Origin: Thermoproteota archaeon
GTDB taxonomy: Archaea; Korarchaeota; Korarchaeia; Korarchaeales; Korarchaeaceae
Length of the DNA stretch: 64,000 nucleotides
Assembly: GCA_015522685.1 (NCBI GenBank)
Contig: WALU01000029.1
Span: forward strand, 2,042-66,041
Reading direction: 5' to 3'
The position numbers were made by a program, and so were the translations under genes. The notes below the pieces were generated by a model. That model worked only from the letters and a program-made list of their open reading frames with translations, was not told where the DNA came from and searched no databases. This document shows, one piece after another, positions 12,964-57,890 of the stretch; positions within the stretch are counted from its first letter, which is position 1, and every line of letters starts with the position of its first letter.

Positions 12964-13100
12964 TGGTGGGGCCGGTGGGACTTGAACCCACGCCTTACGG
13001 GTCTCCCCCTCATTGCTCCAATGACTGGAGCCCGCCGCCCTGCCTTTCCAGGGCATTCTCCCCCAATCATAAGGAGAGAGCCAGACTGGGCCACGGCCCC
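12964..13100 (-). tRNA. trnW: tRNA-Trp(CCA) with two introns (38 nt in the D-loop, 13083-13046; 22 nt at 37/38, 13024-13003); CCA end encoded
   Basis: Acceptor GGGGCCG/CGGCCCC, D-stem GCCC/GGGC, anticodon stem GCGGG/CCCGT with CT-CCA-G, T-arm GTGGG TTCAAGT CCCAC, 3' ACCA; spliced length 77 nt. Confidence 0.95.
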
Positions 13101-53891: not shown

Positions 53892-54927
53892 CTTCATCCC
53901 CGGGCCAGTTACACCATCACGCAGGGTTATGAAGGCTTTAAGCTATCCCATGCCTTATCATAGAGGAAAAGAATTCTCAGATATTTATAAGGAGATCAGA
54001 TCGCTGCTTTCACCTTTATTTGGGGGGGATGGAGAAATTTCAGTGATAAGTGGATCATCTACGGCTGGAATTGAGGCTATGATCTCCGGTTTCTCCCTTG
54101 GCAAGAGAGCGGCTGTGATAGCAGATGGAAAGTTCGGTGAGAGGCTGGGGGATATAGCTTCCATCTACAGTAAGGTAAATTACATAAGAGCGGAGTGGGG
54201 GCAGACTCCCACTATCGATCAGCTGGATTCTTCACTTAATGAAGCTGAGTATCTTTTAGTGGTTCATAATGAGACCTCGACCGGAATCGAGCATAAGATG
54301 GATGTAATCTCGGATCTAGCCAGCGATAAAGGTGTGAGCCTACTAGTAGATGTTGTGAGTTCTATAGGAGGAATGAATGTTGAAGCTGAGACGTGGAACG
54401 CTAAAGCTTTAGCAGGTGGGGTTCAAAAGTGTATAGGCGCCCCTCCAGGACTAGCTCCTGTTATGGTGAGAGATTGGGGAGGATATTCAAGAGCTAGTTA
54501 CTACTTAGACTTAATGATATATAGGAAAATGAGTTCTATAGATCAAACTCCATTCACTCCAGCGCTCCCTCTGTTTAATGCTTTGAGAGAGGCATTAATA
54601 GAGGTACATGAGGAGGGCCTTAGGAGAAGAATCAAGAGACACAAAGCTATCTCAAAGATACTGAGGAAGGAGCTTATCAATTTGGGATTCAAGCTCTTTC
54701 CTGAGATGGGAGAAATTGGAAGGTATTCTAGCACAGTAACTGCAATAGTTGTAGGGAAAGCCGAAAAGGTAAGAGAATTGCTGAAGAAAAGAGGAATATT
54801 AGTAGCCGGTGGTCAAGGACCATTGAAAGGAAAAATCTTGAGGCTCGCTACGATGAGCAACATTACTGAGAGAGATGTTTATGCACTAGTCTCATCGTTA
54901 AAGAAGGTAACTAGGGAAGTCTCCTGA
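53866..54927 (+). CDS. Class V PLP aminotransferase (archaeal SerC/serine-pyruvate type)
   Basis: FIPGPV, HRGKEF, HNETSTG, DVVSS.GG, GGVQKC, QTPFTP. Confidence 0.88.
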   Translation: MQDGSTVINFIPGPVTPSRRVMKALSYPMPYHRGKEFSDIYKEIRSLLSPLFGGDGEISVISGSSTAGIEAMISGFSLGKRAAVIADGKFGERLGDIASIYSKVNYIRAEWGQTPTIDQLDSSLNEAEYLLVVHNETSTGIEHKMDVISDLASDKGVSLLVDVVSSIGGMNVEAETWNAKALAGGVQKCIGAPPGLAPVMVRDWGGYSRASYYLDLMIYRKMSSIDQTPFTPALPLFNALREALIEVHEEGLRRRIKRHKAISKILRKELINLGFKLFPEMGEIGRYSSTVTAIVVGKAEKVRELLKKRGILVAGGQGPLKGKILRLATMSNITERDVYALVSSLKKVTREVS

Positions 54928-56500
54928 GGATCTTCTCAGATAGCTCATCACCGAGTCTAGGAGAGAAGGTCCTTATGAAGGGATCTAGGTTCATCTCAAA
55001 GCTTTGTTCTTCTTCATTCCACAGATCAATAGGAAGCTGCCAGTTAGATGGTCCTATTGATAATAAGTAATCTATTTTTTCTAAGTGATCTTTGAAAAGA
55101 ATCCGAATAGATTTCATAACAGTTCCTATTATATGCTCATTTGCAAAGATTATGGCAATCATTCCAACAAGCCCACCACTAGTGAAGAATATTATTGGGG
55201 AGGAAACACTTGAAAAGGCCGCTCTAACTCTCAATAGATCCTTGTATGGTAGATTAAGCCTTACAAGTAAAGCTTCTCCTAGACCTACACCTGCTGGGTA
55301 GTACCCTTTAACGATTATTTCATGCTTTTTATACTTAGCAAACCTCTCTGCTGCGTTTGGTACACCAATCCTATGGAGGTATGTCCTAGAGGCTTTACCT
55401 CGGCTGTTAATCGCGCTTAATGCAAGCATATCTGCCTTATCTAGTTTGATTGGAGGCTTTGATGATCTATATATCTCTCTCCACTCTAGAGGAGTATCCT
55501 GAGCCGAGTTATAGCCCGATGCCATAAGCCCAAGTACCTCCTCAGGTTCAATAGTAGCCAAGGAATGTAAGTCAAATGAGAAACCCTCTGCTTTCCCTAG
55601 CCTCATCTCTCTTCCATTCAGCTGCGAGAACACGTTCTCATACTTTGATGGTATTAAGAAGTAGATATAATTGACATTCCTTAAGGTTACGTATGTAGTA
55701 TATGTATATGGAAAATTCTCAAGAAATTCTATCTCGTCTTTTGTTGGATTCTTCAGCTCCATTAGGTATGTAGAGAGGTTCATTTTAGGGAGATATATTA
55801 CATAAGGTCCGTAGATTACACCTTTACTTATTAAGTCTCTTAAAGCTCTAGATATTGAAGCTAAAGAAAGTCCAGTGTACTTTGAGAGACTCTCTAGTTT
55901 AGCTCCACCTAATCTTATAGCATGCACCAGAGATTTAAGCACTATCAATTCCCTTTTAGACATTCTCACTGAAGGATATTTCATTGCTATCATAGTAAGT
56001 GTGAGATAATCTTTCAACGATATTACCTTATCAGGATGCTGTTTATACAGAAAAAGGAGTGCTTTTGTTATGCTTTTGATTACTTGCCACCTATTCTTCG
56101 CTTTATACCACTGAAGTACCTCAGGAGCGAAGTATCTGGGCATAGTAGGTATATTAACCTCACTGGTGCATTTAGACCACCACTTAGGATCGGCATTGGC
56201 ATAGGCCCATGCTAGATCGTATACCTGAGGAAAATCAACTTGAGGTAAAAAAAGAGTAAAAGCTTCTCTTTTCATCACAACGTTCATCTTATCAGTAGAT
56301 AGATCCCTGCTAATAAGTAGATTTCCCCTTTCTTCTTTTACTCCACTTCTAATATTATTTTCTAATTTAACGTCTGCTAGAGTAACTCTCCTTGGAATTG
56401 GTCTTATAGGAGCCTCTTCTAACCCTTTTTCGATCTTCTTAACTTCCTCAATGAATATTGAAGTGTAATCCTCATTTTTTTCATAGATTCTATGTTGCAC
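54911..56500 (-). CDS. Large multi-domain regulator: unknown N-domain, wHTH, Lrp/ACT-like domain, second degenerate wHTH, C-terminal alpha/beta domain
   Basis: LESLSKYTGLSLASISRALRDLISKG HTH; LDKADMLALSAI..RG.AS second helix motif; leaderless GTG about 25 nt from TTTATTA. Confidence 0.7.
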   Translation of the reverse strand: MQHRIYEKNEDYTSIFIEEVKKIEKGLEEAPIRPIPRRVTLADVKLENNIRSGVKEERGNLLISRDLSTDKMNVVMKREAFTLFLPQVDFPQVYDLAWAYANADPKWWSKCTSEVNIPTMPRYFAPEVLQWYKAKNRWQVIKSITKALLFLYKQHPDKVISLKDYLTLTMIAMKYPSVRMSKRELIVLKSLVHAIRLGGAKLESLSKYTGLSLASISRALRDLISKGVIYGPYVIYLPKMNLSTYLMELKNPTKDEIEFLENFPYTYTTYVTLRNVNYIYFLIPSKYENVFSQLNGREMRLGKAEGFSFDLHSLATIEPEEVLGLMASGYNSAQDTPLEWREIYRSSKPPIKLDKADMLALSAINSRGKASRTYLHRIGVPNAAERFAKYKKHEIIVKGYYPAGVGLGEALLVRLNLPYKDLLRVRAAFSSVSSPIIFFTSGGLVGMIAIIFANEHIIGTVMKSIRILFKDHLEKIDYLLSIGPSNWQLPIDLWNEEEQSFEMNLDPFIRTFSPRLGDELSEKILRRLP

Positions 56501-56563
56501 ACCAATTAGTGTCGTTAGAGCTAATAAATTTTTTCTTTAGCAATAATAGATTGTAACTCTGCT

Positions 56564-56588
56564 TATTACCCCGGTATTACCCCGGTAT
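56564..56588 (+). repeat. Perfect 11-bp tandem direct repeat TATTACCCCGG x2 plus TAT (candidate operator)
   Basis: Read directly; period equals one helical turn; lies just upstream of TAAATAAAAA (56599-56608). Confidence 0.85.
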
Positions 56589-56666
56589 AATGATCTACTA
56601 AATAAAAAGGGCTATACTAGGTCTATAGATACGGTCAACATATAAGGAGAAGAAGAAAGGAGGTTG

Positions 56667-56717
56667 ATGGATATGGAGTATGGACCAGTATGCCCACCTT
56701 TACCCCCAATAGATTAA
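56667..56717 (+). CDS. Candidate micro-peptide (MD)MEYGPVCPPLPPID; absent from the ORF track
   Basis: SD AAGGAGGT 56657-64, ATG at 56667 and 56673, TAA 56715-17, T-tract immediately after. Confidence 0.5.
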   Translation: MDMEYGPVCPPLPPID

Positions 56718-56719
56718 GT

Positions 56720-56783
56720 CCCTCTTTATTTATTTTCTTATCTATTCGTTTTCTATTCTTTCTTGCACTTTCTTTTGTTTTTT
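56720..56783 (+). terminator. Long T/pyrimidine-rich tract (archaeal-type terminator)
   Basis: CCTCTTTATTTATTTTCTTATCTATTCGTTTTCTATTCTTTCTTGCACTTTCTTTTGTTTTTT. Confidence 0.6.
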
Positions 56784-56876
56784 GAAAGAAATGTAGGTAA
56801 GTAAAATTAAAACGGTAAGCATTGTTCTTACCAAGGGATTCTCATAGCTAATAAAAGCAATAGAGATAACCGAGCA

Positions 56877-57890
56877 GTGTACATTGTAGCACTGGTAGAG
56901 AAAAATATCCCAGGGAAAGGATTGACAGATTCAGTTGAGCCGATATCTACTATCCTAGAGAAAAAGTTGGGAGCTGATTGGAATGTTTCATACAACGCTC
57001 TAGGGAAAGTTAGAATATATAACTTTGGAATAGCTGTTGCTGAGCAGACAGACCCTCCTGATGAATGGGCAACTAAAGTTTATCCATTAGATAGGGGTTT
57101 TGAGCTGCATACTTCCTCTGAGAGCATCACGTTAGAAGGAAGGGATCTAAGGAATCTTAGAATAGCAATAGATCTTGCTGTCATGAGTCTCTTTGCCTTC
57201 AAAGATCCTCTCATGTGCCTGAAAGAGGAGCTTATCAGAGCGGGCATATTCTATCTGAATCCAAATCTCTGGTCAGATCCTTATCTAGTAGGTAGAGATC
57301 TGGCTGAAGCTTTCTCTTTCATATCAGAAAAACTCGAGCTAGAAAGGAGGTATAATTCGTTCGTGAGATCCCTGCACTTCTTAAGTCAGCTTAATCATTT
57401 GCCGAAAATAATGAACTCTCTTAAATCCTTAGCTGTTTTGGGGATAGAACCTCCCCTAAACAAGAAAGATCTTTTTTACACAGAGCAGCTCTCGCCTATC
57501 GAAATAAAGGTTCTAACCGCATTGAGTGTAAAGGAGGCGATAGATAGACTCTATGGGTTAGATGCAAGGAGGATCGTATCCTTGCTATCGGATTTGATGG
57601 GGCTGAGCTCGGAATCTTTTGATAGAAGAAAACTCCTCAAATCTCTTTCTCAGAGGGAGTTAAGGGAGGGGCTTACCCTCAGCGAGATATCTCATGTACT
57701 CGGTATAGATAAGGCTTACCTGTGGAGGAGCATTCTGCCTAAGATGATAGATAGGTTCCTTGTGATAGTAAGCGATGACAGATATAGAGGCAAGGTTGTT
57801 AAAACGTATAGGCCCAATATATCTCTTCCTCCAATCAGCGATATGGTTATTTCGTTCTCCCTCAACCTGAGCTATCTAGTAAGAGGTTAG
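56877..57890 (+). CDS. Hypothetical protein with a C-terminal winged HTH
   Basis: GLTLSEISHVLGIDKAYLWRSILPKMIDRFLV...G..VKTYRPN. Confidence 0.65.
   Translation: MYIVALVEKNIPGKGLTDSVEPISTILEKKLGADWNVSYNALGKVRIYNFGIAVAEQTDPPDEWATKVYPLDRGFELHTSSESITLEGRDLRNLRIAIDLAVMSLFAFKDPLMCLKEELIRAGIFYLNPNLWSDPYLVGRDLAEAFSFISEKLELERRYNSFVRSLHFLSQLNHLPKIMNSLKSLAVLGIEPPLNKKDLFYTEQLSPIEIKVLTALSVKEAIDRLYGLDARRIVSLLSDLMGLSSESFDRRKLLKSLSQRELREGLTLSEISHVLGIDKAYLWRSILPKMIDRFLVIVSDDRYRGKVVKTYRPNISLPPISDMVISFSLNLSYLVRG

Follow-up and report, generated by a model that had tools for sequence, protein, structure and literature searches.

A 14-codon, proline-rich gene lies between two divergently transcribed genes for winged helix-turn-helix (wHTH) proteins in the 64,000-nucleotide stretch of korarchaeal DNA analysed here (the window, from contig C29 of a 1.48-Mb, 63-contig genome), and we show that this micro-gene, termed P, is a real gene selected at the level of its amino acid sequence, far beyond anything expected by chance. 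P is strictly co-located with gene A, which encodes a 529-residue protein, and has diversified along with it; with gene B, encoding a 337-residue protein on its other side, it belongs to an undescribed A+B+P module that recurs across Korarchaeota, often within CRISPR-Cas loci, and of which the window holds a chromosomal core copy. The tandem repeat, TATA-like box, Shine-Dalgarno sequence, micro-open reading frame (micro-ORF), T-tract and the 529- and 337-codon reading frames are all found where an initial annotation of this DNA had placed them.

P Encodes a Conserved Proline-Rich Peptide

P occupies positions 56673–56717 of the plus strand and encodes MEYGPVCPPLPPID, a peptide of 14 amino acids, followed by a TAA stop codon at 56715–56717. 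Comparison was made over a syntenic set defined by the divergent A/B pair, comprising at least 13 other species of the genus (44–60% identity) and four closer relatives (66–84%), and the micro-ORF is present in 18 of 18 A–B intergenic regions. The orthologous peptides, among them MNMEYGPVYPPLPPID, MRNGPIAPPLPPIV, MDMMIGPIHPPAPPVK, MIGPIAPPAPPVI, MNVPPAGPPAPP, MDGPIIPPGPPIG, MNGPIIPPDPPIV, MDGPFFPPGPPIG and MSGPIVPPGPPIG, and MNGPIIPPDPPIG in Korarchaeum cryptofilum, follow the consensus M-x-G-P-[IVF]-x-P-P-x-P-P-[IV]-x. Across the 17 alignable orthologues the codons for G1, P2, P5, P6, P8 and P9 are unchanged at their first two positions (12 of 12) and vary at every third position (6 of 6, mean 1.35 bits), and the flanks of P have diverged freely in the intergenic alignment. 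This three-base periodicity amid freely diverged flanks argues that selection acts on the encoded peptide. The stop codon is likewise conserved across the orthologues, and in every public record that we retrieved the orthologous micro-ORF had gone uncalled as a gene.

An upstream in-frame ATG at 56667 of the plus strand would give the longer product (MD)MEYGPVCPPLPPID*; since the close relative L066 lacks this first ATG, the conserved start is the ATG at 56673 and the product has 14 residues. Where the window copy has cysteine, the orthologues vary among C, Y, H, A, I, V and F. Thus, of the Pro/Cys micro-gene of 14–16 residues that had been proposed from this DNA, the proline and the 14-residue length stand, but the cysteine is not conserved and the upstream start is dispensed with.

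P is preceded by the Shine-Dalgarno sequence AAGGAGGT (56657–56664, plus strand, 8 nt 5′ of the ATG at 56673), and as GGAGGT or GAGGTGAT this motif precedes the start by 6–10 nt in every orthologue and in the majority of paralogues. Some 65 nt 5′ of the same ATG lies an A-rich, TATA-like box, TAAATAAAAA (56599–56608, plus strand), probably the promoter element of P, which the intergenic alignment shows as CTACTAAATAAAATGAGC or AAAACAAAATAAGC in all orthologous loci. On the 3′ side, a T-rich stretch with several T4–T6 runs (56720–56782, plus strand) is a probable archaeal oligo-T terminator; the orthologues, and most of the paralogues as well, have T-tracts after the P stop codon, and between P and B these are succeeded by a separate TATA-like box. 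From these signals we infer that P is transcribed separately, from the TATA-like box through a leader of about 35–40 nt with a strong Shine-Dalgarno sequence to the oligo-T end. In the transcription-unit layout that had been described, P's own Shine-Dalgarno sequence, A-rich box and T-tracts thus prove to be conserved features, and transcription itself is deduced from them. Searches with Rfam at the gathering threshold and with ARAGORN gave no known RNA or tRNA at the P locus.

Each P Accompanies Its Own A Paralogue

A probe built on the codon pattern of P, GGNCCN7CCNCCN4CCNCC, matches the window genome three times, the reversed control not at all. The three matches are the window P itself, MGPKLPPSPPPLPD on contig C47 and MSGPGIPPSPPPTPIE on contig C62, and the peptides of this genome read EYGPVCPPLPPID, GPKLPPSPPPLPD and SGPGIPPSPPPTPIE. 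The A family of the same genome likewise has three genes, namely the window copy, one split between contigs C47 and C55, and one on contig C39 that lacks its 3′ end, a gap for which the start of C62 is a fit, and each of the three micro-ORFs adjoins one of them. Loosely defined proline-rich micro-ORFs occur genome-wide at a background of 0.063 per kb, so that about 0.03 would be expected in the opposite-strand flanks of each A gene. In other genomes, too, most full-length A paralogues come with a proline-rich micro-ORF, always on the strand opposite to A and either divergent, 120–320 nt upstream, or convergent, 13–230 nt downstream; in at least 10 loci of convergent layout no co-oriented gene follows P. 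Members of the P family are 11–23 residues long, begin with M-(x)-G-P and each contain at least two di- or triprolyl motifs, and most of the paralogous micro-ORFs have a Shine-Dalgarno sequence and a T-tract. In a maximum-likelihood tree of 23 A proteins each well-supported clade has one peptide type. With most A paralogues having a micro-ORF of their own, of a type that tracks the clades, the layout resembles that of bacterial peptide/regulator pairs.

The window genome has three A genes, and genome G002 has as many as seven. The latter also contains an A-family copy with internal TGA and TAG codons (G002:C4:875907-877056), apparently a pseudogene, about 14 kb from an intact tandem A pair. 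Tandem A paralogues are bracketed by differing micro-ORFs at loci L034 and L035 (P1, A1, A2, P2), each P being directed away from or towards its own A, and here an inverted pair, GTCCTTCGAACG and CGTTCGACGGAC, about 265 bp apart, flanks A1–P1. In the subfamily with peptides of the form (M)GLPPS[TA]P[VI]PP... (L028:1421-1474, L033:4747-4788, L034:2434-2487 and L035:5503-5556) a perfect GGGAGGTGA is followed at once by the codon ATG, TTG, TCA or CCG, according to species, and the proline-rich frame otherwise shows mostly synonymous differences. The variation at this start suggests either non-canonical initiation or recent decay.

A Is Predicted to Be a Tandem Lrp/AsnC Regulator

Gene A (54911–56500, minus strand) encodes, in order, an N-terminal domain without family assignment (residues 1–175), two wHTH+RAM units (residues ~180–340 and ~355–500) and a Trp-rich tail with a conserved W-x-x-P-x-x-L-W motif. 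Its invariant residues include W98, W108, Y123, W487 and W494. The AlphaFold2 model of A has a mean predicted local distance difference test score (pLDDT) of 92.7 and a predicted template modelling score of 0.87, and Foldseek places NirDL (4ch7) first among its structural matches (E 7e-7), followed by the Lrp/AsnC proteins 2cyy, 2pmh, 8q90 and others; a TPR fold is missing from these matches. Both HTH positions in distant full-length A homologues give weak Pfam matches to HTH_24, AsnC-type HTH and MarR, and searches of A and B against Pfam, NCBIfam, PADLOC and PDB sequences yielded only sub-threshold HTH matches. On the strength of the model A is best described as a DNA-binding, ligand-type regulator with a tandem Lrp/AsnC fold. 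The wHTH and Lrp-like modules that had been read from its sequence, and the C-terminal wHTH read from that of B, are thus borne out by structure prediction and fold search.

The architecture of A is new within the Lrp/AsnC superfamily (the feast/famine regulatory proteins, for example Pyrococcus PH1519/FL11, 2cyy). Residues ~180–500 correspond to two wHTH+RAM units in a single chain, like NirDL, whereas the typical member is a single unit of ~150 residues that forms dimers or octamers; A is a two-unit fusion of 529 residues with, in addition, a 175-residue N-terminal domain and the Trp-rich tail. NirDL is an enzyme and not a regulator. The effectors of Lrp/AsnC proteins are free amino acids or other small molecules, and we know of none that has a dedicated peptide gene.

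The N-terminal domain gave only noise in a Pfam scan of 22 family members and a PDB profile search, with no peptidase match in either, and the Trp-rich tail has no family match. In the model this domain runs helix, three strands, helix, the second helix bearing a conserved R78-E79-A80; the order is compatible with the zincin-like domain of ImmA/IrrE (COG2856), though the His ligands of its HExxH metal site are absent. A Foldseek search of A against the viral structures of BFVD returned nothing below E 0.01. The first HTH (residues ~155–230) has weak similarity to the HTH of Csa3/CasR (E 2e-4 to 3e-6); the profile TIGR01884 scores 20.8 bits against A, with a curated cut-off of 60.2, and no CARF region is matched. 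A conserved alignment block 5′ of A contains the TATA-like box TTTATTAGCT (56519–56528, minus strand), probably its promoter element, about 20 nt 5′ of the GTG start, a spacing that implies a leaderless A mRNA. The 10-mer AGCTAATAAA, read on the minus strand in this TATA-like region (56519–56528), recurs at 56846–56855, about 20 nt 5′ of the GTG of B.

B Belongs to a Family Ending in a wHTH

Gene B (56877–57890, plus strand) encodes a protein with a β-rich N-terminus, a helical middle and a C-terminal wHTH at residues 268–313. Its model (pLDDT 87) has only weak fold matches, to MarR/PadR wHTH proteins, and B falls in no Pfam, NCBIfam or PADLOC family. It is homologous to proteins of 478 and 534 residues encoded in paralogous modules (E 3e-12 and 4e-27, respectively) and is a short member of a previously undescribed family of 470–535 residues that ends in a wHTH. 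Since homologues of B accompany paralogous A genes, the unit comprises A, B and P. A TATA-like box lies 5′ of B at 56803–56812. Annotated lengths of B orthologues range from 294 to 361 residues, and those at L004, L005 and L015 have no ATG, GTG or TTG 5′ of the conserved N-terminal NTIYI segment.

An Inverted Box Pair Is the Conserved Cis Element

The 11-bp tandem repeat between the divergent promoters had been taken for the operator of this locus; the cis element that is conserved proves instead to be a pair of inverted boxes, which the initial annotation had overlooked. The left box, TGAAAAAAATG (56473–56483, minus strand), lies within codons 6–10 of A, and the right box, TGAAAGAAATG (TGAAAAAAATG in relatives; 56783–56793, plus strand), just upstream of the TATA-like box of B, forms the second arm 310 bp away. 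The most conserved non-coding element of the locus is TTGAAAAAAATGTCGG, 65–85 nt past the P stop codon, where the window reads TTGAAAGAAATGTAGG (56782–56797), and the left box hardly changes as DNA across 14 species while its neighbouring codons vary. Two Korarchaeum genomes that are complete or nearly so, G012 and G017, each contain just two copies of the 11-mer TGAAAAAAATG genome-wide, both at the A/P/B locus, inverted and ~308 bp apart (C1:174407-174417 and 174715-174725 in G012). The box is also rare in the window genome, and a regulon search for further TGAAAAAAATG sites found none; it is essentially unique to the locus. The inverted boxes are operator candidates, and their geometry would suit a regulator that represses A and controls B. 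Among the paralogous modules one further subfamily only has an inverted box pair. A small ORF starting at an ATG inside the right box was considered as a gene and rejected, its product being unconserved (M*, MSEHNI*, MSGGID*).

The tandem repeat itself comprises two copies of TATTACCCCGG (56564–56585), the element as a whole extending with the TATA that follows to 56589 (no strand assigned), and is a candidate clade-specific regulator site. The exact 11-mer has these two copies only, and two or more matches are obtained in 9 of 100 shuffles of the window. The orthologue comparison retains the micro-ORF and its Shine-Dalgarno sequence at every locus but not the repeat, of which the nearest clade keeps only half-sites, TTATTAC-N5-(T/A)AT(T/A)AC; the K. 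cryptofilum clade has the palindrome GAGGTTACTGAACCTC in its place. For the region from P to B, RNAalifold on 18 orthologous sequences gave no consensus RNA structure (0 predicted pairs).

The Module Recurs in Korarchaeota, Often beside CRISPR-Cas Genes

A is found in 31 of the 43 genomes of the phylum that were examined, and a profile search of 1.8 billion representative proteins returned 40 close clusters and about 110 full-length relatives of ~540 residues. A frequent linkage of the module to CRISPR-Cas, overlooked in the initial annotation, is seen in its paralogous copies. On contig C2 of genome G015 (L023:5409-6449) a CRISPR array with at least 17 copies of GAATCCCGAAGAGGGAGTTGAAAG adjoins a Cas_APE2256 CARF gene, the micro-ORF MSGPLIPPSPPPT, an A paralogue, the 534-residue B homologue and a cas3-like helicase fragment; other paralogous modules adjoin genes for Cas6, a Cas3-like C-terminal domain, and RAMP or CARF proteins. 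A distant A relative from a hot-spring assembly lies near Cas4, with MEVKEVNPPRPWPEPTPPDTED in the micro-ORF slot. The neighbours of the window locus are of housekeeping type (2-hydroxyacid dehydrogenase, class-V aminotransferase, methylpurine-DNA glycosylase and Xer-type integrase), and their order is retained in close relatives. Elsewhere in the window, at 12967–13100 of the minus strand, Rfam reports a tRNA of 134 nt (46.6 bits) that is absent from the ARAGORN output; it is probably an archaeal tRNA with an intron.

Proposed Mechanism and Alternatives

We put at about an even chance the reading that P is a stand-alone, translated, intracellular micro-protein that works with its own A and perhaps B, most likely by altering, as ligand or co-factor, how DNA is bound at the boxes. 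Each P peptide would then pair inside the cell with its cognate A paralogue, and possibly with B, and would change the occupancy of DNA by A or B. Likely targets would be the inverted TGAAAAAAATG boxes, one overlapping the 5′ end of A and the other upstream of the B promoter, through which the module would autoregulate; modules inside CRISPR-Cas loci would also control neighbouring cas genes. Several points weigh against this reading. Co-inheritance of P and A is also expected from linkage, so that the match between tree and peptide type is no proof of interaction, and the RAM pockets of Lrp/AsnC proteins are known to take single amino acids rather than 14-mers. No clear P accompanies five of the A genes (L020, L027, L030, L038 and L088), the two most divergent included, and in one subfamily the canonical start is missing from two of four P copies. 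In Baldrarchaeia (Asgard), sampled through three contigs, the divergent upstream slot of the A homologues holds a K/E-rich gene of 44–48 residues and none that is proline-rich (L090:3579-3725 and L091:3577-3711, on Baldrarchaeia-type contigs where the A homologue lies beside genes for Cas6 and Csa3-like proteins).

The main rival, possible if doubtful, sees in P a reporter of translation that is prone to stalling: aIF5A and Pro-tRNA would be needed for its PP-x-PP core, and the rate of its synthesis, or the stalled ribosome itself, would signal translation or proline status to A and B. Every member of the P family retains two or more di- or triprolyl motifs, and 9 of 17 orthologues follow their first PP with G, D or N. 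In E. coli, PPG, PPD, PPN and PPP rank with the strongest motifs for EF-P-dependent pausing (PMC13602936); the remaining orthologues, however, read PPL or PPA, outside that list. The Lrp/AsnC 'feast/famine' type of A and the contrast between a leadered P mRNA with a strong Shine-Dalgarno sequence and an apparently leaderless A mRNA would fit such a reporter as well. On the other hand, a bare stall signal would have no need of the Gly-Pro start or of hydrophobic residues at positions 3 and 10, which are conserved too, and the diversification of P with each A paralogue suggests that a specific product is recognized. Nor is there an evident route from a stalled ribosome to A or B, and convergent layouts leave nothing downstream to be controlled. 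It is unlikely that the module as a whole serves as a sentinel of translation status, with P constitutive, aIF5A-dependent and stall-prone and the paralogue-specific A reading, with B, the level of its own P to turn on or off CRISPR-Cas genes in the paralogous modules or a core response in the window copy, in which case P output would drop when infection or starvation disturbs elongation.

Weaker than the translation reporter are the remaining alternatives. A secreted autoinducer, sensed by A after re-import, as had been suggested for this locus, is improbable. The peptide gene does adjoin its cognate regulator, and genomes do contain several distinct regulator/peptide pairs, mirroring the multiplicity of RRNPP systems; by inspection, however, the peptides of 11–23 residues have no signal peptide and no hydrophobic, SHP-like export segment, and the predicted receptor fold is Lrp/AsnC, not TPR. 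Neither exporter, processing protease nor Opp-type importer is among the identified module genes, several neighbours being without a family match. Of the proposed analogy to bacterial peptide/regulator systems, the pairing with adjacent regulators therefore stands, but neither a secreted signal nor an RRNPP-type receptor is supported.

Quite improbable is a cis-acting role for P as a leader peptide or upstream ORF that controls transcription or translation of B. In the window subfamily P always lies 160–190 nt upstream of B in the same orientation, and the lack of a canonical B start in three species hints at unusual expression; yet T-tracts, the conserved box and a TATA-like element separate the two genes, the 18 aligned sequences predict not one RNA pair between them, and in other subfamilies P is convergent with no co-oriented follower or precedes a different gene. 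That the conserved block serves as a non-coding element of DNA or RNA, its C-rich CCNCC repeats being able in principle to base-pair with RNA rich in G, or that P is the precursor of a ribosomally synthesized and post-translationally modified peptide, as had also been entertained, is highly improbable, since wobble-only variation with conserved Shine-Dalgarno sequence, start and stop fits coding sequence and not base pairing, Rfam has no match at the locus, P lacks a leader/core organization, and no modifying enzyme is among the identified genes of any A/B/P module (A, B, aminotransferase and DNA glycosylase immediately around the window copy, cas genes around paralogous ones), several neighbours having no family match.

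Comparison with Known Systems and Significance

Read as an intracellular peptide partner of A, P invites comparison with the RRNPP and Rgg/SHP systems of Firmicutes (Rap/Phr, PlcR/PapR, AimR/AimP), with which the module shares a very short peptide gene beside a cytoplasmic regulator, several diverged pairs per genome, and a peptide sequence that diversifies with its receptor. The receptors of those systems are TPR+HTH proteins, whereas A is predicted to combine a tandem Lrp/AsnC fold with its unassigned N-terminal domain; the korarchaeal peptides are proline-rich and, by inspection, without export or processing signals, the module has a third protein in B, its host is an archaeon and its context frequently CRISPR-Cas, and there is no homology. 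Very short ORFs rich in proline codons are also known from Salmonella mgtL and mgtP, and as with other polyproline sequences at which ribosomes pause without EF-P or eIF5A, translation of P is expected to depend on EF-P/aIF5A and Pro-tRNA. The mgtL and mgtP ORFs, however, sit in the 5′ leader of the operon that they regulate and act via alternative RNA structures, whereas P, unlike attenuators of the mgtL or trpL type, stands alone as a unit that often lacks a downstream gene and shows no conserved RNA structure. With Csa3/CasR the module has in common a wHTH regulator within CRISPR-Cas loci and the weak HTH similarity of A; Csa3/CasR proteins are CARF+wHTH, whereas A is without CARF and comes with B and P, and the window copy is not beside cas genes.

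Full-text literature searches found no account of the A/B/P module and likewise none of a peptide–regulator pair in Archaea, in keeping with the earlier statement that no such system had been described for this lineage. P, like B, belongs to no known family, and the function of A/B/P as a system is deduced from the comparisons above. Genes of 12–16 codons are invisible to gene callers, and P nevertheless shows a very clean signature of selection at the protein level. Should P be the ligand of A, then A would be the first Lrp-type regulator known to us whose effector is a genetically encoded peptide. Should the sentinel reading hold instead, the module would couple archaeal immunity and physiology to ribosome status in a new way, one that Korarchaeota and Asgard archaea may share. 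Since many copies of the A/B/P module have cas genes and CRISPR arrays on either side, it is a candidate device for controlling CRISPR-Cas expression in archaea, a process that is, to our knowledge, poorly understood outside Csa3.

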